Virus record (IMG/VR): IMGVR_UViG_3300047994_000617
Coordinates: 32,001-96,000 of that record
DNA length: 64,000 nucleotides
Reading direction: 5' to 3' (one strand)
From: a virus
Part shown: positions 15,843 to 40,042 of the stretch, piece by piece
Layout: every line of letters begins with the position of its first letter
Numbering within the stretch: the stretch's first letter is position 1
Notes under the pieces: generated by a model
What the model was told of the DNA's origin: nothing
What the model saw: the letters and a program-made list of their open reading frames with translations, nothing else
Databases searched by the model: none
Program-made: the position numbers and the translations under genes

Positions 15843-17612
15843 ATGACCCAGCACCCGGAGGGCGAGCATGCACCCTACGATCCCTCTGGGGGGGCTGGCG
15901 TACAGACAGGCTATCGACCCTCGCCGCCGCATCCGCCGATCAAGTCACATCCGCTGTTTCCGCTCCCGCTCGACGAGCAGGGGGCGCCCGTCGGCTTCGA
16001 GACGGTCGAGATCTGCTACGTCTGCTTCCTCCGCAAGGGGCAGCCCAATATCTACGCACCGCAGAACTTCGAGGCTGACGACCCGCGCGTACAGGATTGG
16101 GCCTGGGTCGCCGCGACGTGGGGCGGCGGCCAGTACCAGGCCATCGCCAAGGACGCGCAGCGGAGGGTGATCCGGCACTCCGGTGAGTGGATCCTCTTCG
16201 ATGGACCGTCGAAGCCGATGGTGATGCCGCCCGACGGCCCGCCGATGGCGACTGTCGCAGCGCATCAGGCCCCGCCAGCGCCCGCTGCCACTGCCGCGCA
16301 GGTGCCTCCGCCCGCCGCCAGCCTCTCCCCGGAGGTGGCTGCACTCGTCGGCGTGGTCAAGGCGCTCGCCGAGGAGGTCCAGCACATGAAGGCCGCTCCG
16401 CCGGCGCCGCCTCCCCCGACTCCAGAGCAGACGATCCTGCTGAAGGTCGTCGAGAAGCTGGACCGGATGGACGAGAGGTCGCGCGAGCGCCCGCCGGCGC
16501 CAGCGGATTCGCTGGTGGCCGTGATGCCGATGTTCCTTCAGCAGATGAAAGACGCCAGCGACAACAACCGGCTCATCATGCAGGCGATGATGGACCGGAG
16601 GAACGAGACTCCGGTGGCGAGCGTGGTTCCACCGTCGCCGGTGGACCAGATGGCCACTCTCATCAAGATGCTCGAGCCGTGGATCAAGCCCCCGCCGCAG
16701 GCCCCCGCGCCGGCCCCGACTGCACCGGCAGCACCGGCCCCAGATCCGCTCGCTTCGACGTTCGCGGTCATGGACAAGCTCAAGGAGCACGGGATGATGC
16801 CCGGTGCCACCGGAGCAGGGAGCAACGACTTGAAGTCGGTGATCGATGGTGGCGCGGCGGTCGTGACGAGGTTCATCGACGCGAAGGCGAAGACGGACGC
16901 GGCTGCCCTCGAGCTGAAGAGGGAAGAGCTCCGGGCGAGCAGGACGGTCCTCCCGCCGCCGGCCCAGGCCGCACCTCCGCCCCAGGCCGCGCCGCCGGCC
17001 CAGGCAGCGCCGCCGGCCCAGGCCGCGCCTCCGCCCCAGGCCGCGCCGCTGGCGGTCCAGGCCGCGCCTCCGCCCCAGGCCGCGCCGCCGGTGGTCCAGG
17101 CCGCGTCTCCGCCCCAGGCCGCGCCGCCGGTGGTCCAGGCCGCGTCTCCGCCCCAGGCCGCGCCGCAGGCGGTCCAGGCCGCGTCTCCGCCCCAGGCCGC
17201 GCCGCCGGCGGTCCAGGCCGCGCCGTCGCGCGACGAGGCACCTGTGGTGGCCCCTTCACCGCCTCCGCCACCGGGCGCGCGGTCTCCCGCTCCGCCGTCG
17301 CCCGTCGCCGAAGCCGCTTCGATCCTCGAAGAGCTGCCCGCCGACACAACGAGCCTTCTCAGGGAGGCTGCGTCGTCGATCACGGTCGAGGAGCAGATGG
17401 GCGCCGCGCAGGCGTTTGCTGGGCTGAAGAGCCTTTCTCAGTCCGAGCGCGTACCGGTCTTGGAGAGCATGTTCCCCAACATGGACACCGGGATGGCCAC
17501 CGGCGTCTCCCGCATGCTCGACGACCTCCCTGTGGACATGCTCCTGCAGAGCCTCCACGGCATGAAGATGAAGATCCTCCTCAACGGGCATAACCCGCCC
17601 CCGGTGGCCTGA
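15843..17612 (+). CDS. Pro/Gln/Met-rich protein with N-terminal WGGG-x-YQAIAKD domain; putative virion or assembly protein
   Basis: First gene after motif copy 1; QAAPP/QAASPP repeats at ~16965-17222; N-terminal domain shared with 43577-45475. Confidence 0.65.
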   Translation: MTQHPEGEHAPYDPSGGAGVQTGYRPSPPHPPIKSHPLFPLPLDEQGAPVGFETVEICYVCFLRKGQPNIYAPQNFEADDPRVQDWAWVAATWGGGQYQAIAKDAQRRVIRHSGEWILFDGPSKPMVMPPDGPPMATVAAHQAPPAPAATAAQVPPPAASLSPEVAALVGVVKALAEEVQHMKAAPPAPPPPTPEQTILLKVVEKLDRMDERSRERPPAPADSLVAVMPMFLQQMKDASDNNRLIMQAMMDRRNETPVASVVPPSPVDQMATLIKMLEPWIKPPPQAPAPAPTAPAAPAPDPLASTFAVMDKLKEHGMMPGATGAGSNDLKSVIDGGAAVVTRFIDAKAKTDAAALELKREELRASRTVLPPPAQAAPPPQAAPPAQAAPPAQAAPPPQAAPLAVQAAPPPQAAPPVVQAASPPQAAPPVVQAASPPQAAPQAVQAASPPQAAPPAVQAAPSRDEAPVVAPSPPPPPGARSPAPPSPVAEAASILEELPADTTSLLREAASSITVEEQMGAAQAFAGLKSLSQSERVPVLESMFPNMDTGMATGVSRMLDDLPVDMLLQSLHGMKMKILLNGHNPPPVA

Positions 17613-17615
17613 GAC

Positions 17616-18644
17616 ATGCGCTACGCCGACCTGGGCCACGGACTCGAGCGCGCTCCCCGTGGTCCCTTCCTGTCCTTCCCGCCCGTGGACGCTCCGGTCC
17701 CCGACATCCGCCCGATCGGCGGGTTCGGACCGGTGCAACTGCACCCCTGGCGCGGCCCCTTCCCTCCCGTGCCCCTGCACGTCGCGCGCTGGCGCTGGAC
17801 CGGCTACCCCGATCTCTTCGACGCGCTCGACGCGAACGACGACGAGGCTGTCGACGAGGACGAGCTCGCCCGAGGCATCGGCCGGGGGCTCCATCTCCTG
17901 CGCGGCGAGGCGGCGGGGCCGATCGACGAAGAGGACTGGCAGGGAGACCCCGAGGCATTCCGTCTGGTCGACGCCGACGGCGACGGCCGCGTGAGCCACC
18001 GCGAGCTGGCGCAGGCCCTCGGGCCTCACGCCATCCGCCTCGCGCACGGGCATCCGGCGCACGGCCCGATGCTGCCTGCGGGATCGGAGCAGGCGTTCAC
18101 CGCCCACGCCCGCTGGGTCGTGTTCAAGAACCGCGAGGACAAGGCGCAGTACATGCGCCGCGCGGCGATCCACGACGCACAGGATCCCCAGGTCAAGTCG
18201 TGGGCGGTGGAGTTCCTCAAGCTGCCCGAGGACAAGCGCGCGACCGCGATCCTCCGCTTCGTGCAGGAGTGCGTCCGCTACGAGAGGGACCCGGCCACCT
18301 TCGATCCCGATGGCACCCGCCACGGCATCGAGCTCCTCGACAGCGCGCCCACGGGGCTCTGCCGCGGCTACGGGGACTGCGATCTCAAGGCGAGGCTGTT
18401 CGTGGCGCTCTGCCTCGCCTCGGGGATCCCCGCGCAGATCGACCCGGTGTTTCGGGGCGAGACGGGGTTTCCCCATGTCCGCGCGCGGGTGCTGCGCATC
18501 GGGGGAGAGACGTCGGACCCCAGGAACTGGGACGTCGCCGACCCCACGATCGTCAACTCCGACATCGGCAAGCTCCCGGCCAAGCCGCTCACCGCCTGGC
18601 CGGAGCACGCGGGAGAGGCACGGCGGGACACCGGGCCCGAGTGA
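17616..18644 (+). CDS. EF-hand plus transglutaminase-like (Cys-His-Asp) enzyme; candidate maturation protease
   Basis: EF loops DANDDEAVDEDE and DADGDGRVSHRE; GYGDCDLKARLFVALCLASGIP, FPHVRARV, WDVADPT. Confidence 0.85.
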   Translation: MRYADLGHGLERAPRGPFLSFPPVDAPVPDIRPIGGFGPVQLHPWRGPFPPVPLHVARWRWTGYPDLFDALDANDDEAVDEDELARGIGRGLHLLRGEAAGPIDEEDWQGDPEAFRLVDADGDGRVSHRELAQALGPHAIRLAHGHPAHGPMLPAGSEQAFTAHARWVVFKNREDKAQYMRRAAIHDAQDPQVKSWAVEFLKLPEDKRATAILRFVQECVRYERDPATFDPDGTRHGIELLDSAPTGLCRGYGDCDLKARLFVALCLASGIPAQIDPVFRGETGFPHVRARVLRIGGETSDPRNWDVADPTIVNSDIGKLPAKPLTAWPEHAGEARRDTGPE

Positions 18645-18730: not shown

Positions 18731-18769
18731 GCGTTGGTGCCTGTCCTTGGGCGGAGGAATACTCACGTC

Positions 18770-19723
18770 GTGGACTTCTCCTTCAGCCGGGGCTCGGGGG
18801 TTCCCACACCGCCGCCGGCGCTCGGTTCTGACACGAACCCGGCGACGCTGACCGGCGCCGCGGCGGCGGCCTACGTCACCAACGACAACTGCGTCACCTT
18901 CCAGCTCGTCGAGGCCGGACCGCAACCGCTGCACCTCGCCGTCGCGGCCGCCTTCGTGGGGACCGGCACGCCGGGGCTGGTGACGCTTAGCCTGTACGTC
19001 TGGGACCCGACCACGGGGACCTGGTTTGCCCTCCCGACCCCCGCGACGCTCGACGTTGGCCAGGAGGTTACGGTCGACGTCCCGGTGGTGATGAGCACGA
19101 CCCTGGCCTGGACGCTGGCGATCGTCGCGTCGGTGGCCTCCCCGGGGGCCGGGATCTACACGTTCGAGGCGGGGCTCAGCGAGAGCGCCGCCGCCGGGAC
19201 CGGCGGCGGCGGGCCGACGACCGTCGTCGCGAACCAGGGCCTGCCAACGGCGGACACGACCAGCGCCGCGTGGCCCGAAATCGCGGCCAACTCGACGTAC
19301 GGTGCATGCTGGGGGGGCACGGCGCCGTTCGGCGCGCCGACCGCTCCGCCGCTCGCCCCTAACTTCGCGCCGGGCGGCTCGGCGGTGGAAGCCGGCGCGG
19401 TGCGGGTGGTCGCCGGCGGCGTCGTGCGCTGCCTCACGGGCGGGCACGTCGCCGCGAACCCGCCGCCCAATGGCGCGCAGGGCGTGACGAGCACGGACGG
19501 CGCCGGCAACGAATGGCTCGGGCTCGGCCCGCTCAAGCAGGGCATCGTCCTGCGAAACCTCGACGCGACCAACGTGCTCATGTGGGACTGGTTCCCCGAC
19601 CAGGCCGCGGGGTTCCCCATCGGCCCCGGCGCCGCGATGGAGATCCCGGTCTCGGACCCCTCGCTGATCTACGTCTGGGGTGCGACGGCCGCCGTCGGGT
19701 GGGCCGTCGCGGGGGCGTCGTGA
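18770..19723 (+). CDS. Beta-rich Thr/Ala/Gly protein, putative virion vertex or spike component
   Basis: Alternating hydrophobic strand pattern and very low charge; GTG start chosen from the upstream GGAGGA. Confidence 0.55.
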   Translation: MDFSFSRGSGVPTPPPALGSDTNPATLTGAAAAAYVTNDNCVTFQLVEAGPQPLHLAVAAAFVGTGTPGLVTLSLYVWDPTTGTWFALPTPATLDVGQEVTVDVPVVMSTTLAWTLAIVASVASPGAGIYTFEAGLSESAAAGTGGGGPTTVVANQGLPTADTTSAAWPEIAANSTYGACWGGTAPFGAPTAPPLAPNFAPGGSAVEAGAVRVVAGGVVRCLTGGHVAANPPPNGAQGVTSTDGAGNEWLGLGPLKQGIVLRNLDATNVLMWDWFPDQAAGFPIGPGAAMEIPVSDPSLIYVWGATAAVGWAVAGAS

Positions 19724-20242: not shown

Positions 20243-20278
20243 GTCGCGACCCAATAAGTCGATTTATTGGGTCGCGAC
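20243..20278. repeat. 36-bp near-perfect palindrome (15-bp arms GTCGCGACCCAATAA/TTATTGGGTCGCGAC, spacer GTCGAT)
   Basis: Read directly from the sequence. Confidence 0.9.
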
Positions 20279-20284
20279 CCCGTA

Positions 20285-20308
20285 ATAAGCCAAATCGGGT
20301 CACGCCAA
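20285..20308 (+). promoter_or_regulatory. Conserved 24-bp motif, copy 3
   Basis: ATAAGCCAAATCGGGTCACGCCAA upstream of the giant ORF. Confidence 0.75.
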
Positions 20309-20371
20309 ACACCCTATCAGGGGTTGTCTCGTACGGTGTGCTCAGCGCACGCTGACCACATGGAGACTGAG

Positions 20372-23300
20372 ATGCCGGCGCTGCTGGTGGATGGCGACAC
20401 TCGGGCCGCCGACACGCGTCCACTCGACTTGTCGGGCGGCGAGACCGGGGCGGACATCCTGCCCGTCGGCGGCAAGCCCGCGCGCGCGCCGGAGCCCCTC
20501 CACCTGGACAACCTCGCTGGGCAGCCGGCCCCCCTCCAGCTTTCGCCGGAGCCCGCTCCGAGCGCGCCGAAGCCCGCGCCGCGCGCGCCGTCGCCGCCTC
20601 TCCAGCTCAGCGGCGAGCCCGCTCCCAGCCCGCCGCGGTCTCCGGGGCCCCGTCCCCTCCACCTCGGCGCGTCGCCGGCTTCTCCCGTCAACCCGGTCAC
20701 CCCCAGCGCGCCGTCGGCGCGACCGAGGGGGCCGGGCGAGCCGCGGTCGCTGGTCCCCGGCCTCGGCGGGATCCACGCGGGTCACATGGGCGCGGCCACC
20801 GGCCTCGTCCACGGCGCGGTCTCCCAGGTCGGCCGAACGCACCCCCACAACGTCCACATGGGCCAGCTCGCCCACGGCGCGCACGCCGATCCGGTGCGGT
20901 ACGGCGGCGACTTCCTGATCGCGAGCCACGGACCGAAGCGCTTCCACGAGCTCCACGGGGAAGGGCGGCTCCCGTCGCAGGCGTGGGAGCGCCACCGCGA
21001 TATCGCGCGCCATGCGCGCCGCGTCCACGAGGAGCTGGGCGGCGAGCTCGCGCGCCGCCACGGACGCCGGCCCCTCGGGGAGCGCACCCTGATCGGGATC
21101 GCCGCCATGAACGGGGCGCACGACGACATGGCGCGTTACCTCGACGCCCAGCGGGTCCACCCGCACCACCCGGCGCACGAGAGCTGGCACGTCCTGATGC
21201 GCGGCTTTCACCCGCGCGAGATCGCTCGCGTGGGCTCGGAGATCGTGCCCGGGGGGGCCATCGAGCCGGCGGTCGACGCCTACCGCGCGATCTGGGTGGA
21301 GCGCGCTTCAAAGGCACGCGCGGCGCGCCGCGCGTTGCTCGCGCGCCTCCGCGCCCTCTGGGCCTCAGGCGATCCCTCGCTCGTGCCGGCCTTCGAGGGC
21401 GTCGTCCGGGGCATGAGCCCGGAGCAGACGGCGCGGCTCCGTACGACGATCGAGCAGGACGGGGACATCGCGCGCGTGCTCGAGGAGATCGAGGCCGCCA
21501 ATGCCGAGGCGCGCATGGCCTCACGCGAGGCCGCCATGCGGCGCTGGCTCGCCGAGTACCACGCCAACCGCGACCCGGAGGCCCAGACCCCCCTGGACGA
21601 GCTGGCGATGACGCCCCCCTCAAGCGCGCTCATCGGCGCGGCCGAGGGCGACGAGGACGACGACGAGGACGAGGGGGACACGGGCGGTCGCGGCGGAGGC
21701 GGCGGTCACGGCGGAGGCAGCGGACGCGGCGGAGGCCGCCGTCCGAGCGCATGGGGAGGTGCGTGGGGTGGCGGGGGCACACCTGGCTGGTTCTTCCTGC
21801 CCGAGGACCCCGACGAGGCTCTCGACGACCCCGATCCCGAGGCGGGCGCTCCGATGGGCGCCCCGGCCGTGGCCCCGCTGCGGGCGCCGTCTCCCGGCGC
21901 GCACACCGCCGACGGCGTGGTCCCCCTCCACGAGCTCGTGCAGGGCTTCGGTCGCGCCGGCCGCGAGCAGCTCCGCCAAGCCTGGGACCGCGGCAACCCC
22001 TACGACGCCTACCGCGCGATCCTCGATCAGCGGGGCGAGGCGACGCGCGCCGCGCGCGAGGCCGCGTTCGTGGCGCGTCTGGAGCGCCTCGGCTGCATGG
22101 CCGACGGGCTCTGCGAGATCCCCCGCGAACGGCTCACCGCATTCAGCGACCTCACCGAGATGTTCAGCCCGGAGCAGTGGGCGCGGTTCGCGGCCGCGCT
22201 CACCCAGGGCGAGGACAAGCCGCTCGACCTCTTCCGCCAGATCGAGGCGGAGAACCTCGACGCCGCGAAGGCCACCCGGCCGCTCGCCTTCATGCGCTAC
22301 TTCGGATCCTGGGGGCAGCACGCCGCCCGCTGGAACCCGCTGGAGTGGGCCATGCTGGCCCCCCGGATCGGGGTCGACGCGGCGGACGCGGCGGACGCCG
22401 CTGGGATCTTCGACGACCTGAGCGGCGCCCTGGGCGGCGCGCTCAGCGGAGCGGGCGGTGGCGGCGGCGGCAACCCGCTGTCCGGGCTGTCCGGGCTCCT
22501 GGGCGGCGGTGGCGGGGGCGGCGGGGGCGGCGGGGGTGGTCCGGACTTCGGGCAGATCGCCGGCCTCGTCACCAAGGTCGGCGGCGCGATCGCTGGTGCA
22601 GCAGGGGGGCACCCGGGTGCGGGTCTCCCGCCCGACCTGGCCGGCTTCGCCGCCAAGGCCGTCGGAGCACTCACGGGGCGGGCGGCAGCGCCTCCCGTGG
22701 GGCCTCCCATCGGCGCGCCCGCGGCCCAACCGATCCAGGCCCCGACCCGGCCGGTCGTGCATCCAGCGCCCCCGCCGCCGCCCACGCACGAAGGACCGCC
22801 GCGGCACTTCTTCAAGGTGATCGAGGCGTGGGGCCCGCGCGGCAAGACGCAGCTCGCCCACGAGTGGGTCAAGGGGCTCGTCGGGATCGGCCTCGGCGAG
22901 ATGGCGCAGGCGCAGGGGCCCGCCCTCCTGGATCGGATCGCGGTGCGGGAGCTCCCCGCCGCCAACACCGATCCGGCCCAGGGGTGGTGGTCGCAGCTCA
23001 TCGCGCACCAGGGGATCGACGGGAACGAGGCGGAGGTCGTGCTCGCCGCGATCAACGCCGGCCCGGACGCGATCCCGCAGGCCGTCGCGGCCTACCGCCG
23101 CGTGCTCGAGGGGCCCGTACGCCACCAGGCCCTGGAGCGCGAACACCTCTTCGCCGAGGTGCTCGCCGCGGCGCAGAAGGCCGCCGGCAAGCCCGGCTTC
23201 GACCCGAAGCGGCTCCCCGGCCTCGGCAACCCGTTCGAGGCGTTCTCCCACCGCGCCGGCCGCTGGGGCGCCGTCCACCAGGCGCTCCTCAACGGTTCGG

Positions 23301-28209: not shown

Positions 28210-28231
28210 GCGCGGCGGCGAGGCCGTGAAC

Positions 28232-28268: not shown

Positions 28269-28304
28269 TCCACAAGGATGAGACGAGGACGGGAGAGCAA
28301 GGAC

Positions 28305-29627: not shown

Positions 29628-29643
29628 AGCGCCGGAGGAGCAA

Positions 29644-29669
29644 GCCCCGCGCCGGCGACGGCGCGGGGC
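29644..29669 (+). terminator. 11-bp stem with GCGA tetraloop after the capsid candidate (terminator or mRNA stabiliser)
   Basis: gccccgcgccg-gcga-cggcgcggggc; no immediate U tract. Confidence 0.5.
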
Positions 29670-29703
29670 GCAGCGGCTCAACCTTTCGAGGAGTCGACCA
29701 AAA

Positions 29704-30313: not shown

Positions 30314-30757
30314 ATGTCCGCTGTTGCCCCCAGCCTCATCCTGCCCGTACAAGTCATCAGCCCCGTCCCGTGGACGGGGAACATGCAAGCCGTCGTCACC
30401 GTCAACTGCCTCGACGGCGATACCGGCCAGACGGCCTCCCGCGCGAGCGCCTGGATCCAAGTGCCACCGGGCATGATCCCCCAGCTCTCGCTCGGCCTCA
30501 GCGCGGAGACCGGTACCTTCGGGTGCTACCTCGAGACCTGCAACCAGGTCGTCGCCGGCGCCGCCGTCGACACCCCCCGCCCCATCGGCTACTTCAAGCA
30601 GACCCCCGGGGCCGCGCTGCCGACCTCCACGCCGATGTCGGGAGGCCAGCCCACCGACAACTGGGTCCGCGTCCAGAGTCAGGTCGGCAACGGCGGCAGC
30701 GTCGCATGGCTGGTGAGCGGTCGCTTCATCGCCGCGTCGTACGCGCAGCAGCTCTGA
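30314..30757 (+). CDS. Small all-beta putative minor capsid or vertex protein
   Basis: 147 aa, strand-like pattern, RBS AAGGA. Confidence 0.5.
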   Translation: MSAVAPSLILPVQVISPVPWTGNMQAVVTVNCLDGDTGQTASRASAWIQVPPGMIPQLSLGLSAETGTFGCYLETCNQVVAGAAVDTPRPIGYFKQTPGAALPTSTPMSGGQPTDNWVRVQSQVGNGGSVAWLVSGRFIAASYAQQL

Positions 30758-30769: not shown

Positions 30770-33700
30770 GTGGCCCTCTTGCTGATCCAGGCGGGGACTG
30801 GCGGCGCGCTCTGCGTCTACGCCAGCCCCTTGCCTGACGTCAGCCCGGGCCACCCGGACACCACCACCGCGCCCGGCATGCCCGGGCCGACCAAGGCCGC
30901 CCTCGGCCCCGTCCCCTGCATCGTCGGCGTCAACGCCCGGGGCTCCGAGACCCCGGAAGAGATCCTCGCCTTCGCCACGGCGAAGACGGGCCGGGAGCTC
31001 TGGTGGGGTGCGCTGATCGGCGTCTCCCGGGGCTGCCAGAGGGTCCGCGACCTGTGGATCGCCGGCGCTGGGGCCCTCGCCCTGGTCCTCATCGACGGCA
31101 TGGCTGGCGTGAAGCCGCCCACCGAGATGCAGAAGGGCTTCACCCAAACCATCGTCGCCCTCGCGCGGTCCGGCGCGATCCTTTTGGTCGTCAGCCACAC
31201 GTACATCGACCAGGGCAAGGCGATCACCTCGACCGCCGAGATGGCGCGGACCGCCACGGGGTGGTCGCTGCCCCCTCCGCCCGTCGGGGAGACCGTGCGC
31301 CGGGTCCAGATGCCCGCCGGCGAGACGCCAGCCCCTCCCGGCTGGCGCGGGGGCCTGGTGGTCTTCTCGACGGGCTCGGGCCCGGCCGATGGCGGCGCCC
31401 ACCGCGACCAGATGGGCAAGCTGCTCCCGCTCATCCTCGAGGATCGGGTGCGGCCCCTGGTGAGCCTGGCGGAGCGGCCCGAGGTGGTCGCCTCCGCGGT
31501 GCCGGCGAGCTCGCCGGAGCCGGAGGCCGAGACGGGGCCGTGGAGTCGCCTGGGCGCCTTGCCGGCGCATGGATCTACGGCTGCACCTACCGCTGCACCA
31601 ACCGCTGCACCAACCGCTGCACCAGGGCGCACGACCGCAGACGGGGCGCGGCGCTACCTCTTGATCGGCGACTCGTTCGCCCAGGGCTTCGGGCCGCCCC
31701 TCGCCGAGCTGGCCGGGAAGCGGCGCCTCGCCTTCCGGGGGGTCGGCATCAAGTCGACCACGATGGGCGACTGGCTCACGGGCGGGCGCGGGGCGGACCT
31801 CCGCGGCGCCGTCGAGGCCGCCGACCCAACGGTCACGATCGTGTCGCTCGGTGCGAACGACATGGCCGGAGGCGATGCAGCGGGCCGCCGGGCCGGGGAC
31901 GTTATCGACACCCTCCGCCGCAACGGCTCGGCCGCAGTGCTCTGGGTGGCGCCGCCGAAGATGCCCACCGAGAGCGCCCCCTTCCGCACCGCCCTCGCCG
32001 AGGCGTGCAGAGTCCGCGACGTCCGGGTCTTCGACACCATGACCGAGCTCCCGCGTCTCGAACGCCGGCAGGGAGACTTCCATCCCACGCCACCGGCCTA
32101 CCAGGCCTGGGCACGCGCCATCGCCGACTGGGTGCCCTTCGCCGACCCCGCCGCAGTACCCGATGCCCGGTCCGCTGAGCCCAGGTCTCCAGGTCCGGCG
32201 CCCGCTCCACCGCCGGCGCCGGCGCTCGTCACGCTCCTCACGCAGATCGACGCGCGGTGGCCGAACCGGAGCCGCGCAGCCGATGGGATCGCGCCCTCCG
32301 AGGCCCACCACAAGGCGAATCCCAAGAGCGACCACGAGCTGCGCAATGCGCTCGACATCACCTACGACCCCATGCACGGGCCCGACCTCGAAGCGCTCGC
32401 CGAGGCCGCGCTGGGGGACGACCGGATCGACTACGCGATCTTTCGCCGGCGCATCGCCAACCCGGCGAAGGAGTCCGGGGCGTGGCGGCCGTACACCGGC
32501 ACGAGCCCACACGAGGACCACCTCCACATCTCCATCCTCGCCGACCACCGGGACCACGCCGAGCCGTGGGACCTTGCGGGGGTGGGCGATGCCGCCGCTT
32601 CCCGGGCGCCGGCGGGACCGGCAGAGCGCCTCCCCGGCACCGCGCTGCCCTTGCCGCGCCCCCTGGGGCCGGGCGAGGGCCGGGCGACCGCTGACCCGTC
32701 CTTGCTGCTCGGCGAGCGCGCGGCGGACTTCGCGCTCGACGAGCAGCGTTCCAGGCCGACCGCGGCGCGGATCGAGAGCTACCGGCGGGGGACCAGCAAA
32801 GCCGGGGAGCCGTGGGATGCCGCCGCGTTCGCGTTCAGCGCGGCGTCCGTGCTCCAGCCCGGCGAGCGCCTTCCGCACCCGGGCACGTCCCGTGTGAGCG
32901 TCCTCGTCGGCGGCGGGGGCTTCCGGCCCCGAGGAGCCGGGTACACGCCCCGGGCCGGCGACGGCGCCATCTTCGCCTACCGCGGCGACCCTCGCGCTGG
33001 CGGCCAGGGCCGCGTGGGGCGGGTGACGGTGCCCCCCGGTGAAGACGGGCGCTTCGAGACGATCGAGGGCGACGTCAACGGGGCCTGGGGCCAGCGCGAG
33101 CACCGCCTCGACGAGCCGGCCTTGCTGGGCTGGATCGCGTACCCGATCGCCGAAGCCGTCAAGCCCGCGGTCCTCCCGGACTCGATCGTCGTCGAGGACA
33201 TGGGGCGCCTCCCCCTCGAGGAGTACGTCGCCCGCGTGGTCACGGGGGAGCTCGGGGAGAGCTGGCGCCAGCCCCAGGCCCTGGCGGCGCTGGCGATGGC
33301 CGCGCGCACCTACGCGGTCTACATGATGCGGCACGGGGGCTGGGGCACTGAGCAGAAGCCGATCCCCAATTCGACCAACTTCCAGGTCGTCCAGGGCGCG
33401 CCGACGGCGCTCGCGACCCAGGCCGCGCAGGCGACCCGCGGCGGGCTGATCTACTACAAGCACCAGCCCATCCTCGCTTTCCACAACGCGGGCGCGATCT
33501 GGCCGAGGAACGCGCGCACCGGCGCTGGCGGGCGCGACGACTCCCGCACCGAGAAGAACATCACCTACAACGGTGGGCGCTCGGGCCGAAACGTGAAGCC
33601 CGCGCCCATCGGGACGCACGCCGTCGAGGGCAACCGCGGGTGCCTCTCCCAGAACGGTGCCGACGAGCTCGCCCGCCAGGGTCTCACGTGGCCCGAGATC

Positions 33701-33889
33701 CTCCGGTACTTCTACGGCGAGGACGTCGAGTTTTCGATCCCCGAGCCGGCGGGCCGGCGGGCGCCTCGACCAGGCCCTCGTCCTCGTCCCGCCCCAAGAC
33801 CCTCCGACGAGGGATCGGGCGCGGGCGCGGGCGCGCTGATCGCTGGGCTCGGCGCCGCCGCCGTGATCGCCGCCATCGCGAGAGGATGA
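30770..33889 (+). CDS. Membrane-anchored multidomain cell-wall hydrolase: SGNH esterase, Zn-peptidase-like domain, degenerate CHAP, SpoIID/LytB domain
   Basis: LLIGDS/SLGAND/DFHP; SDHELRNALDIT..PHEDHLHIS; EPWDAAAF/GRVGRV/TIEGD; LEEYVARVVTGE..ALAALAMAARTYA..CLSQNGA..EILRYFYG; C-terminal TM. Confidence 0.8.
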   Translation: MALLLIQAGTGGALCVYASPLPDVSPGHPDTTTAPGMPGPTKAALGPVPCIVGVNARGSETPEEILAFATAKTGRELWWGALIGVSRGCQRVRDLWIAGAGALALVLIDGMAGVKPPTEMQKGFTQTIVALARSGAILLVVSHTYIDQGKAITSTAEMARTATGWSLPPPPVGETVRRVQMPAGETPAPPGWRGGLVVFSTGSGPADGGAHRDQMGKLLPLILEDRVRPLVSLAERPEVVASAVPASSPEPEAETGPWSRLGALPAHGSTAAPTAAPTAAPTAAPGRTTADGARRYLLIGDSFAQGFGPPLAELAGKRRLAFRGVGIKSTTMGDWLTGGRGADLRGAVEAADPTVTIVSLGANDMAGGDAAGRRAGDVIDTLRRNGSAAVLWVAPPKMPTESAPFRTALAEACRVRDVRVFDTMTELPRLERRQGDFHPTPPAYQAWARAIADWVPFADPAAVPDARSAEPRSPGPAPAPPPAPALVTLLTQIDARWPNRSRAADGIAPSEAHHKANPKSDHELRNALDITYDPMHGPDLEALAEAALGDDRIDYAIFRRRIANPAKESGAWRPYTGTSPHEDHLHISILADHRDHAEPWDLAGVGDAAASRAPAGPAERLPGTALPLPRPLGPGEGRATADPSLLLGERAADFALDEQRSRPTAARIESYRRGTSKAGEPWDAAAFAFSAASVLQPGERLPHPGTSRVSVLVGGGGFRPRGAGYTPRAGDGAIFAYRGDPRAGGQGRVGRVTVPPGEDGRFETIEGDVNGAWGQREHRLDEPALLGWIAYPIAEAVKPAVLPDSIVVEDMGRLPLEEYVARVVTGELGESWRQPQALAALAMAARTYAVYMMRHGGWGTEQKPIPNSTNFQVVQGAPTALATQAAQATRGGLIYYKHQPILAFHNAGAIWPRNARTGAGGRDDSRTEKNITYNGGRSGRNVKPAPIGTHAVEGNRGCLSQNGADELARQGLTWPEILRYFYGEDVEFSIPEPAGRRAPRPGPRPRPAPRPSDEGSGAGAGALIAGLGAAAVIAAIARG

Positions 33890-33891
33890 CC

Positions 33892-34557
33892 ATGACGAAG
33901 AGAGCCGCTTCTGCCGCCACCTCCAAGCCCCTGCATGCCGAGCTCGCGAAGCTTTGGGCGAGGCGGGATGGATCCGTCGTCCTCTGGCAGGCGACGGCAC
34001 CAGCCGGCCCCGAGGCCCTGATCTATCCCGACGAGATCCTGGCGGTCGCCGCGCCGGGCTGCGCGGTCCGCCGCGGCCCGGCGTCGCTCGTGGCGAACGG
34101 GGCACCTATCGCGGCGGCCGTGGCGACGATCTTGGGCACCGGAGGGACGTTGCCCACGAGGCAGACTCTCCCGCGCCACTACCGCGAGCTTCGGAGCGGC
34201 CCCGGCATGGACTACCCGGCCGAGATCGTGGTGGGCGAGAAAGCGTACGTCCCCGGGCGCGCGTGGAACGTGCGCGTGCACGGGACGTTCGAGAAGTTCG
34301 TGAAACAGGCGTCGCCGGCCGATCTGATCGCGGACCTGGCAGGGATGGGCGTCGAGCTTCACTCGTTGATGACCGCGCACAGCGGGGGCGTGCCCCTGGT
34401 GGTCGCCAACGCGGACGCGCGCCGACGGGTCGTCAACGTCGGCAAGGCCATCGAGCAGATCGGACGCGCGCTGCCAGCAGCCGTCTCTCGGGCAGCGAAG
34501 GCGGACGCCATGGCGCTCTCGTCGCGGACGAAGCGCAAGAAGGGGTCGGGACGATGA
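33892..34557 (+). CDS. Hypothetical basic protein
   Basis: RBS AGAGGA; ATGA coupling to the next gene; alternative start 33886. Confidence 0.6.
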   Translation: MTKRAASAATSKPLHAELAKLWARRDGSVVLWQATAPAGPEALIYPDEILAVAAPGCAVRRGPASLVANGAPIAAAVATILGTGGTLPTRQTLPRHYRELRSGPGMDYPAEIVVGEKAYVPGRAWNVRVHGTFEKFVKQASPADLIADLAGMGVELHSLMTAHSGGVPLVVANADARRRVVNVGKAIEQIGRALPAAVSRAAKADAMALSSRTKRKKGSGR

Positions 34558-35798
34558 CCACGACGAGCAGCTCCGCCTCCATCGCCAAGCCCCGGCGCCC
34601 GGAGCTCGTTGCCCGCTACGAGAGAGGCGGCCGCAAGGCGGTCTACTACCGCAGCAATGACGGGATCGAGGCCGTGGTGGCGGGCGGGACCATCACCGCC
34701 TGCAAGGGGCGCGGGAAGGTCAAGGAAGGGCCCGCGAGCGTCCTCCGCGGCAAGAGTGCCGTCGGCCTGGGCGACGCCGCGCGGATGCTGCTTGAGGGCC
34801 CAGGCGGCACGCCGATCGGGACCAAGGGCCTGGTCACGGTCTTCGTCGCCTACACCCACGCCGGCGGCGTCTGCTGCTGGTCCCGGGAGCGAGACGTTGC
34901 GGCGGCGTCGGCGAAGAGGCGCCAGGGGTTCGTCAGGGCCTTCATGGTGCCGGCGTTCCGCGACACCGACGGTCCCCAGGGGATCCCCGAGCACGTCGCG
35001 CCGCCGTGGCGAACGTCGGATCATCCGCGCGGAGGCACGACCGAGATCCAGAGCGTCCTCCTGCCCAAGGCGAAGTTCCCGACCCAGGCGGACGCCGCGC
35101 TCTGGCTCGTCGCGCAGAAGAAGCCCTTCCGCGCGGACCGCATCGAGGACTCGGGGAGGGTCAAGGCCGGCAACTACTGGAGCGCGCGACAGCACGATCC
35201 TCGCCGGGGCGTGCGCTACGCGACGATCCCCTTCGGTCAGTCGGGGATCCTGGCGCGGATCGAGGCGAAGGGAACGCCGAAGCAGGCGGCGGACGGCGAC
35301 CGCGAGGCCATGCTGGCCCGCCCGCGCGCCAGCAAGGGGACCTCCAAGGCCAGGCCGGGCCCCGTGGTCCTGGTGGGCAGCTCCAAGACCCAGCTTGACA
35401 CCGGCGCCCCCGTGCCGGCCTCCAAGCGCTACACGTCGGCGCTCTTCGTCGATTCGCTCGCCTACGCCAGGAAGCTCACGCTGGGGGGTGGCACCGTCCG
35501 GATCCTCTCCGGCAAGCACGGGCTCCTGAAGCCCACCACGAAGGTCAAGCCCCACGACGAGACGCTGGCGGAGATGTCCGCCGCCGAGCGCCGGGCCTGG
35601 GGGCGGCGGGTGCTCCGCCAGCTCCTCGCCGAGTTCGGCTCGGGGCCGCGGACGTTCATCTGCCTCGCCGGCGATACCTACGCCAAGACCATCTACGCCG
35701 CGGGACCTCCCGCTACGTGGGACTGCAAGGAACCCCTCAAGGGCGAGGCCAATGGCGTGCGGTTGACGCACGTCCGGCGGCTCCTCGCCGCACGCTGA
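34554..35798 (+). CDS. Basic multidomain protein with a Tlr6F-like middle domain and DUF6884-like C-terminal domain
   Basis: IQSVLLPK..F....A..WL....NYWSARQHDP....Y.T....GI; VVLVGSSK..PASKRYTSALF..ILSGKHGLL..PHDETL. Family names are from recall of motifs. Confidence 0.55.
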   Translation: MTTTSSSASIAKPRRPELVARYERGGRKAVYYRSNDGIEAVVAGGTITACKGRGKVKEGPASVLRGKSAVGLGDAARMLLEGPGGTPIGTKGLVTVFVAYTHAGGVCCWSRERDVAAASAKRRQGFVRAFMVPAFRDTDGPQGIPEHVAPPWRTSDHPRGGTTEIQSVLLPKAKFPTQADAALWLVAQKKPFRADRIEDSGRVKAGNYWSARQHDPRRGVRYATIPFGQSGILARIEAKGTPKQAADGDREAMLARPRASKGTSKARPGPVVLVGSSKTQLDTGAPVPASKRYTSALFVDSLAYARKLTLGGGTVRILSGKHGLLKPTTKVKPHDETLAEMSAAERRAWGRRVLRQLLAEFGSGPRTFICLAGDTYAKTIYAAGPPATWDCKEPLKGEANGVRLTHVRRLLAAR

Positions 35799-35821
35799 TC
35801 GCAGAGAAAAAGGAGACCCCC

Positions 35822-37393
35822 ATGGCTGCTGTGACCGTCGCCGTTCCCGATCCTCCTGGCCCCGATCCGTACCCCCCGCAGTACGGAGCGTGGCAGGACT
35901 GCTCTGGGGTCGGCCCGAACCCCCTGGCCGAGCTCGCCGAGGCGGCCGCCGCCGGAGACCAGGTGCGCCTCGAGACGGCAGCGACTGCGGCGATCACCGG
36001 GGCCGGCGCTCGCGTGACCTACGTCTGCAACGTCGCTGGGGCCGACACGGCGCCGGCGTCCATCTCCATTCCGATCGCTCAGGTCCGCGCCGTGCGCCTC
36101 AAGGGGCAGACGACGGGCCTCCAGGCGACGGTGGCTCCCACCAATGCCGCCGGGGGCTCCGGGTCGGGGAGCCCCGCGAACGCCTGGGCACGGGGGGGCA
36201 ACGCCTTCGGCACGGGCACCAGCTACTTCGGCACCACCGATGGCGGCGACGTCCTGGTGGGCGTGGCGGCGGGCCTCGCCAACGTCTGGCTCACCGCGGA
36301 CGGGGTAAACCTCACCCTCACGGCGCCGTCGGGCGCCCTCACGCTGACCGCGCCCGACGGCGCAATCGCGCTGCGCGCCGGTGGGCTCTCGGTGATCGCT
36401 GCCACATCATCCGGGATCACCGTCGGCAACTTCGGGACGTCGACGACGACGCTATCGGGCGGGACGGGCGGGCTCACGGCCGATACCACGGGCCCCCTCA
36501 CCCTCGGCGCCACGCTCGCGCCGAGCTTCCAACTCGGCAACCTGTCGATCGGCCTCGCGAGTTCGATCGAGGTCGGCGACGCGATCCTGTCGATCGTGGA
36601 CAATTCCGGCGGCCAGATCCACGAAGGCGGAGCCGGCGCCGCGTTCGCGAACATCGCCGATTCGCTGCAACTTCGGACCGTCAACAACGGGCCTGTTGTC
36701 CTCGCTGCCGCCGGCTCGGGCTCCGTCGAAGTCGCTGGGCCTGGGGGCATCAGCCTTAGTCCCTCGGTGGCTGCACCGAACGCTTCCGCCGGCGTCGACA
36801 TGAGCGGCTGGACGACCCTGGGGCTCGGCCTGCCTCAGATCCCGGCCGCGACACTCCTCGCCATCGCGACCCCGCTCGCGGGCCTGACCGCGTTCGACAG
36901 CACCAACTCGATCGTCCGGGTGAACGTCGGGAGCCCGGGCACCCCGAACTACCGCAAGGCCGCGGGCGGGCCGCTGGTCCGCGCCACCAACACGAGCGGG
37001 CAGTCGATCCCCGCCACCACCAGCACGACGATCACCGGCTGGACCGCGGTCACCAACGTCGGCGCTGCGTTCGTCCCGGCGACCGGCATCTTCACGGCCC
37101 CCGTCCTCGGCGACTACTTCGTGTCCGCCGGCAGCCAGTACGTCGCCGGGACCACGATCCTGAACGGCGCCTACCGCGAGTCGGCCCTCCAGAACGCGAG
37201 CGTCGTCGAGACGCGCGAGGTCACCGCGCAGGTGGCCTCGATCAGCGCGGTCTTCTCGCCCTCGTTCTCTACGAAGCTGCCGCTCAGCGCCGGCGACACG
37301 CTGGCCATCCAGACCTACCAGGGAACCGCTGGGGCCCTCGCGCTCTCGGCCAACGCCCCCAACAACAGCCTGGCGATCTCGCTGGACTCCTGA
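35822..37393 (+). CDS. Spike/fibre-like protein 1: shared N-terminal anchor, beta-repeat shaft, C1q-like head
   Basis: RBS AGGAG; NVGAAFVPATGIFTAPVLGDYFVS...LSAGDTLAIQTYQ is a C1q pattern. Confidence 0.7.
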   Translation: MAAVTVAVPDPPGPDPYPPQYGAWQDCSGVGPNPLAELAEAAAAGDQVRLETAATAAITGAGARVTYVCNVAGADTAPASISIPIAQVRAVRLKGQTTGLQATVAPTNAAGGSGSGSPANAWARGGNAFGTGTSYFGTTDGGDVLVGVAAGLANVWLTADGVNLTLTAPSGALTLTAPDGAIALRAGGLSVIAATSSGITVGNFGTSTTTLSGGTGGLTADTTGPLTLGATLAPSFQLGNLSIGLASSIEVGDAILSIVDNSGGQIHEGGAGAAFANIADSLQLRTVNNGPVVLAAAGSGSVEVAGPGGISLSPSVAAPNASAGVDMSGWTTLGLGLPQIPAATLLAIATPLAGLTAFDSTNSIVRVNVGSPGTPNYRKAAGGPLVRATNTSGQSIPATTSTTITGWTAVTNVGAAFVPATGIFTAPVLGDYFVSAGSQYVAGTTILNGAYRESALQNASVVETREVTAQVASISAVFSPSFSTKLPLSAGDTLAIQTYQGTAGALALSANAPNNSLAISLDS

Positions 37394-37408
37394 GCGAACG
37401 GACGACCC

Positions 37409-38026
37409 ATGAACCCCACGAACCTGCCCATCCACATCTTCGTCGACAACATCCCGCTCGTTCGCGCGCTCGCGTTCGGCGTGGGGGACGGCTACCCGCG
37501 CGGCCACTACCCTGCGATGGAGCAGACGGCCACCGACCACCCGCTCTTCGGGGCCCGGAAGACGCCGCACGACGTGTTCCTTCATCCTCGCTACAGCGCA
37601 ACTGCGGCGCACGAGACCGCGCGGCAGAAGCAGGAAACGCCGACGGAGCATTTTGCTCGCGACGCCGAGCACCGCGCGGCCGCGCTCGAGGCCATCTCGC
37701 CCGACGTCGCAGCATCTTTCTCGGCGCTGTCCGCGTCGGACGCCGAGTCCGCCGGGCTCTGCCCCGCTCACTTGTGGGAGGACCAGCAGATCCCGGCCGT
37801 CGAAGCAGTGGCGCAGACCCTTCGGCGCTCGGTGCCGAAGGTCGACGAGGAGGGCGCCCAGGGGCCCAGTCGCGGGGGCCCGGTGCTCGAGCAGCGCCCC
37901 GTCGTCGAGGTCCTCCGGCCCGCCATCCCGCCCGGCGTACGCCTCGGCGTTCGCTCCCAGCTCGCAGCCCGGGCCGCCGCGGCCCACGCGCCGACGCCGG
38001 CGGCAGACGGCGCGACCGATTCCTGA
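37409..38026 (+). CDS. Hypothetical protein
   Basis: ORF filling the gap between the spike-like genes. Confidence 0.55.
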   Translation: MNPTNLPIHIFVDNIPLVRALAFGVGDGYPRGHYPAMEQTATDHPLFGARKTPHDVFLHPRYSATAAHETARQKQETPTEHFARDAEHRAAALEAISPDVAASFSALSASDAESAGLCPAHLWEDQQIPAVEAVAQTLRRSVPKVDEEGAQGPSRGGPVLEQRPVVEVLRPAIPPGVRLGVRSQLAARAAAAHAPTPAADGATDS

Positions 38027-38095: not shown

Positions 38096-38863
38096 ATGAC
38101 TGCCGTCACCCTCACCGTCCCCGATCCCCCCGGTCTCGATCCTTACCCCGCGCTATACGGGCCGTGGGTGGACTGCTCCGCGCTCGGCCAGAGCCCCCTG
38201 GCGGAGCTCGCCGAGGCGGCGGCCGCCGGCGACCTCGTTCGCCTGGAGACGGCGGCGACCCAGGCGCTCACCGGCGCCGCCGCCCGGGTGAACATCGCCG
38301 GGAGCGTGGCAGGCTCTGACACGGCGCCCCTGACGATCACCACTCCGATCTCCCAGGTCCGCGCCGTGCGTCTCAAGGGGCAGACGACGGGGCTCACTGT
38401 GGCGGTCGCGTCGACCAACGCCGGAGGGCCGCAAGGCCAGACGGGACCGGCGGGACCGGCGGGACCGGCAGGGCAGGTGCCTCGCGTGTTCCTCGCCAAC
38501 GTCGCCCACGCGCGGGCGTTCGAGGCGATCCTCTTCCAGAACGCGACGGACGCCGACCCGTACGTGATCACCAACCCCAACGCCTTCCAGGCGGCAGGGC
38601 AAGGAAACATTGCCTACCCGGGAGGAACGACCTGGGACCTGACCCTGGCGCTCTACGACAACACGGGGACGTTCGTGGAGAACGTTCCTCTGGCCTCGGG
38701 CGCGTTCGCGATCACCACCGGCTTCTCGCCCGCCTTCACCGAGCTCGGCGGGGTGATCGCGACGCCCTTCACCGTGCCCCCTGGCTACTCCATCTTCGTT
38801 CTGATGACGCCCACGGGCACCTTCGACCTCACCGGCGTGACCTTTGTTCTTCTGAACCCCTGA
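38096..38863 (+). CDS. Spike/fibre-like protein 2: shared N-terminal anchor, short collagen stretch, beta head
   Basis: First ~110 aa paralogous to 35822 and 38873; GPQGQTGPAGPAGPAG. Confidence 0.7.
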   Translation: MTAVTLTVPDPPGLDPYPALYGPWVDCSALGQSPLAELAEAAAAGDLVRLETAATQALTGAAARVNIAGSVAGSDTAPLTITTPISQVRAVRLKGQTTGLTVAVASTNAGGPQGQTGPAGPAGPAGQVPRVFLANVAHARAFEAILFQNATDADPYVITNPNAFQAAGQGNIAYPGGTTWDLTLALYDNTGTFVENVPLASGAFAITTGFSPAFTELGGVIATPFTVPPGYSIFVLMTPTGTFDLTGVTFVLLNP

Positions 38864-38872
38864 GGCGCTCCG

Positions 38873-40042
38873 ATGACCACCACCGTCTCCCTTACCGTCC
38901 CTGATCCTCCCGCGTCTGCCGCCGCCCCCGCCTACGGCCCGTGGCAAGACTGCTCGGGCCTCGGTCAGAGCCCGATGGCGGAGATCGCCGCGGCCGCGAC
39001 CGCGGGGGACCTCGTGCGCCTGGAGACCGCCGCGACGGCGGCGATCACCGGCGCCGCCGCCCGCGTGAACATCGTCGGCCGCGTCGCGGGCTCCGACGCC
39101 GCGCCACTGACGATCGAGGTCCCCATCTCCCAGGTGCGCGCCGTGCGCCTCGGGGGCTCCACGACGGGCCTCACGGTCGCCGTGAGCTCCAGCAACGCGG
39201 GAGGGCCCCAGGGGGCGCCTGGGCCGGCTGGGCCTGGCGGGGTCGGCAACCCATGGGGCCCGGGGACGCTCGGCGGGCTGCACGTCACGGTGGCGATGTC
39301 GCCCTACGAGGCGACAGGACCTCTCTACTTCACGACGCTCGTCGTGGACGCGGGGGCGGTGCTCGACCTCTCGGCGCCGCTCGCGGGGCTCCTCCTGGGG
39401 ACCGTCTCCGCGGACATTGCCGGCACCCTCCGGATCAACGGAGGCAACGGTCAGCCAGGCGCCGCTGGCGGCGCCGGCGGCGTCGGGGGCGGCTACGGGG
39501 CCCAGGCCGCCAACGGCAACGACGGCTCGACCGAGGGCGGCGACAGCCCCACGGGCTACCAGTTCGGCGGGGGCCAGGGAGGCAACGGAGGCGCCGGAAC
39601 CGTGCCCGGCGGGACGACCAGCACCGAGGGCCCGGCGAACGTGCCCCGGGACCTCTGCGGCGCCCTGGCGATGGCCTCCACGCCGTCGTTCGTGGCCGCG
39701 GGGATCCCCGGGGCCGGGGGCTCCGGAGATGGAACCTACAGCGGCGGAGGCGGGGGCGGGATCGGGGGCATGGGCTGGCTGGGCGCGCCCACCGTGACGC
39801 TCCGCTCCACGGCCGTGCTCCAGAGCCGCGGAGGCAACGGGGGCATCGGCGACCCAGCAGGGACGACGGGCGGAGGCGGAGGGGGCCCCGGTGGTATCTG
39901 GACGGTGATCGCGACGACGCTGATCAACGACGGGGTGACCGTGGACGTCGCCGGAGGCCTCGGGGGCACGGGGCCGGGCGGAGGCAGCCACAACGGGCAA
40001 CCGGGAACGGCGGGATCGGCTCTGAACGTGGTCCCTGCGTAG
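38873..40042 (+). CDS. Spike/fibre-like protein 3: shared N-terminal anchor plus glycine-rich domain
   Basis: Shared anchor, GPQGAPGPAG, and GGGGG/GGxGG-rich C-terminal domain. Confidence 0.7.
   Translation: MTTTVSLTVPDPPASAAAPAYGPWQDCSGLGQSPMAEIAAAATAGDLVRLETAATAAITGAAARVNIVGRVAGSDAAPLTIEVPISQVRAVRLGGSTTGLTVAVSSSNAGGPQGAPGPAGPGGVGNPWGPGTLGGLHVTVAMSPYEATGPLYFTTLVVDAGAVLDLSAPLAGLLLGTVSADIAGTLRINGGNGQPGAAGGAGGVGGGYGAQAANGNDGSTEGGDSPTGYQFGGGQGGNGGAGTVPGGTTSTEGPANVPRDLCGALAMASTPSFVAAGIPGAGGSGDGTYSGGGGGGIGGMGWLGAPTVTLRSTAVLQSRGGNGGIGDPAGTTGGGGGGPGGIWTVIATTLINDGVTVDVAGGLGGTGPGGGSHNGQPGTAGSALNVVPA

Follow-up and report, generated by a model that had tools for sequence, protein, structure and literature searches.

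The DNA considered here (hereafter the window) is a stretch of 64,000 nucleotides, corresponding to bases 32001-96000 of the 128,625-bp IMG/VR record IMGVR_UViG_3300047994_000617, which that database classes as a provirus and for which CheckV gives a completeness of 81%. The protein cluster of the capsid candidate discussed below was found on a contig of 684,557 bp, which indicates that the record represents only part of a bacterial contig, the host being a myxobacterium-like soil bacterium. Two moss-metagenome sequencing runs contain the record in full and may be its source, three more contain small shares of it, and no RNA run was among those listed. As the G+C content of the window is 72%, plain lists of open reading frames (ORFs) are full of false frames (309 ORFs), and genes were called by third-position G+C (GC3), which chooses one frame per region. 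This analysis of the window reveals an unbroken run of plus-strand genes between positions 13110 and 40700 (Table 1), headed by an FtsK-type ATPase gene and including the gene for a 440-amino-acid (aa) protein at 28305-29627; by hydropathy, five proteins of the block carry transmembrane (TM) segments. The co-oriented block and the parts that an earlier prediction (hereafter the original prediction) had listed for it were found in place, and the element, put there at 64 kb or more, proved far larger, the record alone measuring 128,625 bp and related elements about 100 kb. We hold with moderate confidence, reading from the genes, that positions 13110-40700 of the window form the virion module of a tailless virus-like element, with the 28305-29627 product as its shell protein.

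The capsid candidate belongs to a family without annotation. A word-based search recovered 14 relatives at 35-45% identity, none of them annotated, and an exhaustive profile search of 1.84 billion representatives gave 65 relatives at E <= 0.001. Two forms can be distinguished, a long one of about 400-465 aa and a short one of 265-303 aa that matches the C-terminal domain only, and the two are homologous according to hhalign (99.7% probability, E 1.5e-25). In the AlphaFold2 (AF2) model of the full-length protein (predicted local distance difference test, pLDDT, 69.1), helices extend to about residue 106 and are followed by a beta domain; the N-terminal extension is acidic and then His/Arg-rich. 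When this model was compared with 48,161 chains, helical bundles filled the list, making the search uninformative on the beta domain, and since the helices (residues 1-108) swamped it, the beta domain was folded alone. Its model (pLDDT 65.6, predicted template modelling score 0.65) is a jelly-roll-like sandwich. Among the 50 rows listed from its comparison with the same 48,161 chains, 31 are virion proteins, including those of Sulfolobus polyhedral virus 1 (SPV1), PRD1 P3, P23-77 VP17, HCIV-1, HHIV-2, PBCV-1 and many coats of RNA and single-stranded DNA (ssDNA) viruses. The models thus argue, at weak to moderate strength, for a C-terminal domain with a jelly-roll-like sandwich fold. The original prediction had made its case depend on a jelly-roll fold of this protein, and the models are in line with that expectation, the nearest solved folds being mostly viral capsid proteins.

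The same domain is predicted to associate with itself. Three copies of it, supplied with a 60-row alignment, obtained an oligomer score of 0.60, whereas the best of three controls obtained 0.00; contacts agree between runs to at least 83%, and the partner pLDDT is at least 74. In calibration, 20 of 30 proteins solved as pairs passed the mark used, as did 1 of 23 solved as single chains. One interface face comprises residues 163-184, 289-310 and 386-396, and the other residues 205-222, 248-286 and 294-297; one of them includes residues 219-222, which abut the invariant D222-T223-N224. Since the two faces differ, they meet the need of a ring or of a helical polymer. A head-to-tail association of the capsid candidate is therefore predicted, in a model that does not tell a capsomer from a filament. 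In addition, the gene ranks fourth of 66 in GC3 and is flanked by two strong predicted RNA hairpins, which would fit high expression without proving it. Counts of consensus promoters and terminators in 26000-41500 were no higher than in shuffles, and an Rfam scan of the record gave no match.

The genes around the capsid candidate are conserved as a unit. Five loci in two metagenome-assembled genomes (MAGs), both of Polyangia type, encode a protein of its family: three contigs of a Byssovorax MAG (G002), and two sites on one 1.78-Mb contig of an 'uncultured delta proteobacterium' (G001), whose genome has a third copy on another contig. These two genomes carry three copies each, and the family occurs in only 2 of the 401 genomes of the phylum that were sampled. 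In the related loci the core order is the giant, the 302-aa, 196-aa, candidate, 194-aa and 147-aa proteins and the wall hydrolase, with homologues of the giant standing upstream of the candidate in four of the five loci (counts for the other genes are given in Table 1). The repetition of this order in 5/5 loci of two MAGs indicates that the block is not a chance arrangement. According to hhalign, the capsid candidate family is unrelated to the 194-aa, 147-aa, 196-aa and 302-aa families, to the fibre anchor and to the neighbours in the compact island described below, the relation between long and short forms being the exception, and the 194-aa and 147-aa families are unrelated to each other.

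Table 1. Genes and RNA features of the co-oriented block at positions 13110-40700 of the window (loci, the five related loci in two MAGs; MFE, minimum free energy)
Feature	Position	Strand	Evidence and remarks
FtsK/SpoIIIE-family DNA translocase, 673 aa	13110..15131	+	PF01580 E 9.1e-33; phrog_1358 E 1.6e-54; two N-terminal zinc-ribbon-like CxxC pairs, Pro-rich linker
Pro/Ala-rich protein with PPQAA repeats	15141..17612	+	GC3 frame signal; true start uncertain; no Pfam or PHROG family; weak 37% match in G001 element A
EF-hand and transglutaminase-core (papain-like) enzyme	17616..18644	+	PF13405 E 1.3e-7 and PF01841 E 9.4e-6, both over cut-off (PF01841 26.3 bits, cut-off 23); homologues in both G001 elements, 56-57% identity
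329-aa conserved partner of the transglutaminase-fold gene	18734..19723	+	Adjoins that gene here and in both G001 elements; 5 proteins at E <= 0.001 counting itself, none annotated
2126-aa giant, first gene of the conserved core	20267..26647	+	Gly-rich and Pro-rich linkers, LysM-like repeats near C-terminus, C-terminal TM anchor; no Pfam or PHROG family; homologue in 4/5 loci
302-aa protein, two TM segments	26650..27558	+	Hydropathy; homologue in 5/5 loci, 37-42% identity
196-aa membrane protein	27619..28209	+	GC3 0.944, third-highest in record; tblastn match in 3/5 loci
Strong RNA hairpin just 5' of capsid candidate	28225..28275	+	MFE -35.4 kcal/mol, z -5.13, 0/200 shuffles equally stable
Capsid candidate, 440 aa (identical to P0001)	28305..29627	+	Helical N-terminal extension of ~110 aa and jelly-roll-like beta domain of ~330 aa
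Strong RNA hairpin just 3' of capsid candidate	29636..29680	+	MFE -33.9 kcal/mol, z -4.63, 0/200 shuffles equally stable
194-aa protein directly 3' of capsid candidate	29704..30288	+	Homologue at same position in 5/5 loci; no Pfam or PHROG family; ESM Atlas features scores <= 0.88, low recognition
147-aa conserved protein	30314..30757	+	Homologue in 4/5 loci; no Pfam or PHROG family
1039-aa membrane-anchored cell-wall enzyme	30770..33889	+	SGNH esterase PF13472 E 4.7e-11, SpoIID-like lytic PF08486 E 8.8e-11; three hydrophobic segments; homologue in 4/5 loci
DUF6884-domain protein	33954..35798	+	PF21818 E 1.9e-27; true start probably further downstream; paralogue at genome 119837-121786
Fibre paralogue 1	35819..37393	+	Common N-terminal anchor, Gly/Ala/Thr-rich shaft, gC1q/TNF-like head
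205-aa protein between fibre genes	37409..38026	+	GC3 frame signal; no Pfam or PHROG family
Fibre paralogue 2	38096..38863	+	Common anchor, short collagen-like GPxGxxG stretch, distinct head
Fibre paralogue 3	38873..40042	+	Common anchor, collagen-like stretch, Gly-rich C-terminal part
147-aa protein with three TM segments, last gene of block	40257..40700	+	Hydropathy; phrog_25392 (function unknown) E 2.3e-12; resembles a holin only in size and shape

The large contig of G001 carries two elements of about 100 kb, at about 561-661 kb and 917-1019 kb (120 kb was read around each site), referred to here as elements A and B. They have at least 16 gene families in common with the record, in a different module order: the PP2C phosphatase, DnaB (77% identity), a 425-aa/185-aa pair, the transglutaminase/329-aa pair, the whole core block, DUF6884, the DarB-like and serpin giants, PAPS-reductase-like genes and a 5'-3' exonuclease protein. 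These common contents suggest, in a judgement that we regard as evenly balanced, that the module belongs to a new family of large integrated elements of about 100-130 kb in Polyangia-type Myxococcota, whose particle would not be that of a head-tail phage. The viral context of the record is given by its provirus class, by DnaB, two C5 methylases and a DarB-like methylase-helicase giant, and by a serine recombinase at its right end.

The short form of the capsid candidate, which consists of the beta domain only, occurs on contigs of up to 20 kb. In genome G302, the second carrier among the 401 genomes sampled, a short form of 291 aa lies within an island of about 17 kb between host genes, with an ABC transporter, a protein with an FGE-sulfatase domain and a 255-aa gene that is metallo-beta-lactamase-like by eye on the left, and TPR, sulfatase, GreA and BamD genes on the right. 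This island, perhaps a small relative or else a remnant, contains a compact version of the core module, about 10 kb long (G302:C21:20941-30615), in the core order: a 728-aa LysM/TM protein, a TM protein, the short form, two small proteins and three TM-anchored proteins. The 728-aa protein has LysM-like repeats (20.4 bits, cut-off 20.9) and a C-terminal TM segment, and is 30.6% identical over 242 aa to the C-terminal part of the giant. The 154-aa TM protein before the short form is weakly matched by the 196-aa protein of the window (hhalign 49% probability).

The existence of a short form invites a composite explanation, in which a jelly-roll virus module of about 15-20 kb was captured by, or resides inside, a larger element, and the shell packages part or none of the DNA, in the manner of a gene transfer agent, a satellite or a decayed remnant. 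The contigs of up to 20 kb and the island of about 17 kb fit the size class of known tailless viruses (PMC5894146), and the position of the module with respect to the replication genes differs between the record, element A and element B, the last being without the FtsK motor. However, every large element examined has the long form with its N-terminal extension, the module lies mid-way in the shared gene content and not at its edge, and all core genes are intact open frames with a strong coding signal. Moreover, the copies within one genome have diverged (35-41% identity to the protein of the window) and yet kept their order, a pattern that speaks for selection acting on the module as a whole. 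We regard the composite explanation as quite improbable, and return to a virion module that belongs to the large element itself.

The original prediction had recognised no head-tail genes in the structural block, and this proved to be the case also for the rest of the 128.6-kb record and, for five hallmark families, in the related genomes. Pfam scans of 52 proteins from across the record brought up no family of a terminase, portal, HK97 capsid, tape measure, tube, sheath or baseplate, and PHROG scans of 40 of its proteins gave the same outcome; the sole 'tail' label is a match of phrog_819 ('tail protein') to 63 residues of fibre paralogue 2 (E 6.5e-5). Six-frame family searches, which are independent of gene calls and gave matches in control genomes, returned no match to PF03354, PF03237 and PF05065 in the record, G001 (11.2 Mb) and G002 (9.4 Mb), and none to PF04860 and PF04466 in the record, G001, G002 and G302. 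At the level of families, the HK97 capsid, large terminase and portal that mark a tailed phage were thus not detected in these sequences, and very diverged versions of them may exist. A tailed phage would require that its head-tail genes be too diverged or lie beyond the ends of the record, with the jelly-roll product as a decoration, cement or tail-fibre-associated protein and the giant as a tape measure. Tape measures often bear wall-binding or lytic domains, and the giant has LysM-like repeats; the record is rated 81% complete by CheckV, its left end interrupts an open frame, and many of its proteins of 250-860 aa have no family. This possibility is nevertheless improbable, as the five hallmark families are missing also from the whole 11.2-Mb and 9.4-Mb genomes, no PHROG of a tail tube, sheath, baseplate, portal or terminase appears among the 40 proteins, host genes border the G302 island, which contains the small module only, and the homologue of the giant there has just 728 aa.

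The ATPase that heads the block is the sole credible Walker A gene between 13 and 40 kb, and would be a candidate genome-packaging or DNA-transfer motor. Its best solved relative among Protein Data Bank (PDB) sequences is cellular FtsK (2iut, E 1.8e-36), followed by ESX EccC and a conjugative 'DNA translocase coupling protein' (6o1w, E 5.8e-16). A homologue of 57% identity adjoins the module in element A. In element B, a stand-alone ORF of 149 aa (G001:C18:970720-971169) corresponds only to the C-terminal ~70 residues of the FtsK protein (46% identity), which suggests that this tail is a separable domain, element B itself being without motor. An FtsK-type ATPase next to the structural genes, as originally claimed, is present as a true FtsK/SpoIIIE protein. 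It is nearest to cellular FtsK, its sequence does not place it in the viral A32/P9 packaging clade, and neither element B nor the G302 island has it.

Fibres and wall enzymes complete the block. The three spike-like paralogues of the original prediction are confirmed, with a common N-terminal anchor and differing heads. Their first ~105 residues are 69-80% identical: the N-terminus of paralogue 1 is 71% identical to that of paralogue 2, and paralogues 2 and 3 share 80% over 85 N-terminal residues. The head of paralogue 1 matches the gC1q domain of EMILIN-1 in the PDB (2ka3, E 5.3e-5) and, below cut-off, Pfam C1q (E 0.0029); this paralogue also matches phrog_15750 (E 1e-7). In paralogues 2 and 3 the anchor is followed by a short GPxG collagen-like stretch. 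The spike P5 of PRD1 combines a collagen-like shaft with a TNF/C1q-like head, and because of this architecture the gC1q-type head and the collagen-like stretches among the fibres were counted for a virion. The anchor domain was not found in the related loci. Equally, the predicted membrane-anchored wall hydrolase and transglutaminase-fold enzyme were borne out by the SGNH/SpoIID domains, by PF01841 and by hydrophobic segments.

The assignment of this block to a virion has to be set against several observations. To our knowledge, all large bacterial viruses are tailed, and tailless jelly-roll viruses of bacteria and archaea have genomes of roughly 7-31 kb; a shell for more than 100 kb has no precedent. 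Jelly rolls also make pili and chaperones. Genomes of prokaryotic tailless viruses with double jelly-roll (DJR) proteins measure about 7-18 kb (PMC5894146), and those of Simuloviridae 16-19 kb. The models of the candidate are of middling confidence (pLDDT 65.6-69.1), and the other 19 of the 50 rows listed in the fold search are non-viral (nucleoplasmins, PHM, dioxygenases, Ena spore pilins, FlhE and others). The oligomer calibration holds only roughly, because three copies and a custom alignment were used. The profile of the candidate found no relative among PDB sequences (one chance hit, E 0.78), tblastn of P0001 found nothing in 50,697 phage records, and candidate profiles found no relative in the scanned IMG/VR contigs. 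The ATPase is closest to cellular FtsK and not to a viral packaging ATPase; its homologue in element A is divergently oriented, the 120 kb read at element B contain no such motor, and a credible Walker A gene is lacking in the G302 island. Finally, no integrase was found among 20 Pfam-scanned proteins in and around that island, and no replication gene was recognised; as it has neither motor nor replication genes, the island may be a remnant, or the module may work without being a virion. All these points weigh against a tailless virion. Metagenome scans with P0067 and P0063 also yielded no relative, and an ESM Atlas structure search for P0007 was discarded as meaningless (Atlas model pLDDT 0.33, all structural TM scores <= 0.24).

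Some of the same observations would suit a non-viral mobile element, in which the block encodes an envelope-spanning apparatus for DNA transfer or a surface apparatus, and the jelly-roll protein polymerises into a pilus-like or ring-like structure and not a capsid. The ATPase is a true FtsK/SpoIIIE protein whose solved relatives include the conjugative coupling protein 6o1w and ESX EccC, the core proteins are mostly membrane-anchored and wall-directed, and the head-to-tail interface suits a filament equally with a ring; the G302 island is a module without a recognised ATPase, replication gene or integrase, and DarB-like polyvalent proteins occur on conjugative elements too. We nevertheless consider this explanation unlikely. 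No relaxase, VirB4 or other type IV secretion family was found in the 52 Pfam-scanned proteins (TraB-type transfer requires few other known markers), and the FtsK motor is not kept together with the module. Capsid proteins make up 31 of the 50 fold-search rows listed, IMG/VR classes the record as a provirus, and receptor-type fibres with swapped heads are typical of viruses. If true, this explanation would mean a new DNA-transfer or surface apparatus on a large mobile element.

The tailless virion, which we prefer, could be built as follows. The 440-aa protein would be the main shell protein, its C-terminal ~330 residues being modelled, at weak to moderate strength, as a single jelly-roll-like sandwich that forms head-to-tail rings, and its helical N-terminal extension of about 110 residues, absent from the short form, may act as a built-in scaffold or as a DNA-binding arm for a larger shell. 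The TM proteins of the block suggest that the particle may contain an internal membrane; judging from TM segments and gene order, the two upstream membrane proteins and the anchored LysM giant would lie in this lipid layer or at a vertex. The position of their genes next to the shell gene suggests that the 194-aa and 147-aa products may be minor components of the shell or of a vertex, and the transglutaminase-core enzyme is a possible maturation protease or cross-linker. The enzyme with SGNH and SpoIID domains may breach the cell wall at entry or exit, the three fibres, with one anchor and differing heads, would bind host receptors, and the pump of the FtsK family, where present, would load or move DNA. 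Of the tailless, membrane-containing jelly-roll virus originally proposed, the absence of head-tail genes, the size and the jelly-roll-like model speak in its favour, whereas the ATPase, being a cellular-type FtsK, does not.

Beyond the block, Pfam identifies in the record DnaB, two C5 methylases, PP2C, Nudix, two PAPS-reductase-like proteins, a second DUF6884 protein, a Ser/Thr kinase and a weak Rha match. Lambdoid-like replication and immunity genes, as first suggested, fit these contents only loosely, through DnaB, a DnaC-like P-loop protein and the weak Rha match. The P-loop gene, at about 12015-13049 (Walker A GPPGAGKS, LVLDD), is DnaC-like from reading of its Walker motifs by eye, and its product had no match among PDB sequences. 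Upstream of it, a long His-Arg dipeptide-like repeat (HRHHRH...) occupies 11478-11700 in a plus frame; given its poor coding signal, this may instead be a tandem repeat that is not translated. A check of the flanks for an integrase and attachment (att) sites brought out the serine recombinase at the right end but no usable att repeat, the record having no long repeat suited to this role (longest distant exact repeat 20 bp).

A 574-aa protein encoded at 60285-62009 (+) has 13 tandem KKPAS repeats and further Lys/Ala/Pro-rich tracts, the highest GC3 in the record (0.962) and weak matches to histone H1-like HC2 and extensin (E ~1e-5, under cut-off); it could be a DNA-condensing protein of the element. 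Two further giants are encoded in the record. The first, a DarB-like protein of 3427 aa, runs from 62016-64000 of the window onward (genome 94016-104299) and combines N6-adenine methylase (Eco57I/N6_Mtase), SNF2-related and helicase C domains, with 65-69% identity over 900-1600 residues to genes of the related elements. The second, of 3285 aa, lies outside the window (genome 105689-115546, window-equivalent 73689-83546) and has a complete serpin domain (PF00079, E 6.5e-105) with a weak match to a C39-like peptidase behind it; parts of the protein are kept in both G001 elements. A Ser/Thr protein kinase (window 47692-49290 (+), PF00069 E 2.8e-36) and a PP2C phosphatase (genome 9509-10651 (+), PF13672 E 6.3e-16) are also encoded, and the phosphatase is kept in both G001 elements. 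The products of genome 131-2722 and of window 45539-46921 share an N-terminal domain of about 200 residues (42.5% identity, no family match), and this paralogous pair flanks the structural block on both sides. Outside the window, genome 14690-15200 (+) encodes a small P-loop protein (Walker A GAAATGKS, frame GC3 0.9), and ARAGORN calls an 88-nt tRNA-Gly with an odd anticodon position at genome ~125561-125648 (-), probably a false call, as Rfam gives no tRNA there at gathering score.

A bolder proposal, which we put forward tentatively, is that these elements form a lineage, the first of its kind, of bacterial viruses that have no tail, a single jelly roll, a membrane and a genome of at least 100 kb, derived from extant short-form relatives of about 17-20 kb. 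The shell protein would have gained its scaffold-like arm of about 110 residues, the LysM protein would have grown to 2126 aa, a cellular-type FtsK would have been recruited as a pump, and anti-defence giants (the DarB-like methylase-helicase and a serpin-protease polyprotein) would have been taken on as cargo. If so, non-tailed viruses of prokaryotes would have undergone genome gigantism, as the giant viruses of eukaryotes did: a temperate element of 100-130 kb that builds a jelly-roll shell would break the size limit, being about five times as large as the known bacterial viruses of this kind. It would also bring a new capsid protein family and a new non-tailed virus group for Myxococcota, and the pair of short and long forms offers a natural experiment on the scaling-up of a small capsid system. 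A search of the literature (open-access text, supplements excluded) returned no description of such an element; membership of any known family is not established, and the protein family and the size are new.

In its working, the proposed plan resembles a virion of the sphaerolipovirus or PRD1 type, and comparison with known systems shows both likenesses and differences. With the classic myxophages (Mx1, Mx4, Mx8, Mx9) and Duplodnaviria in general it has in common the same kind of host phylum, a temperate way of life with a recombinase, and a DarB-like giant, as in phage P1. Differently from these, it has no HK97 capsid, terminase, portal or tail family, and tblastn of the candidate found no match in 50,697 phage records. 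PRD1 (Tectiviridae) and PM2 (Corticoviridae) follow a plan of tailless particles with an internal membrane, a membrane-associated wall enzyme and, in P5, a fibre with a collagen shaft and a TNF/C1q head, to which the likeness here is one of genes. The candidate, however, has one jelly roll, with a core of about 150 residues and large insertions, whereas theirs is double; no protein-primed polymerase and no P9-type ATPase was seen here, and genomes of the PRD1 type measure 7-18 kb (PMC5894146). SPV1 (Portogloboviridae) resembles the G302 island in having no recognised packaging ATPase, and is tailless and membrane-containing, but it is an archaeal virus of about 20 kb, and the structural alignment gives an identity of 3-5%. 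The sphaerolipovirus-type viruses (P23-77, HCIV-1 and HHIV-2; Matsushitaviridae, Simuloviridae and Sphaerolipoviridae) differ in having two distinct jelly-roll major capsid proteins, as against the one jelly-roll candidate here, with no sequence similarity to it. Their genomes measure 16-31 kb (16-19 kb in Simuloviridae), as against at least 100 kb here, and the ATPase of the present element is a cellular-type FtsK of 673 aa that lies 13 kb upstream and is not always present. Like them, to judge from genes and models, it would have a single jelly-roll shell gene adjoining small structural genes and membrane proteins in the structural block, and temperate members exist among them as well.

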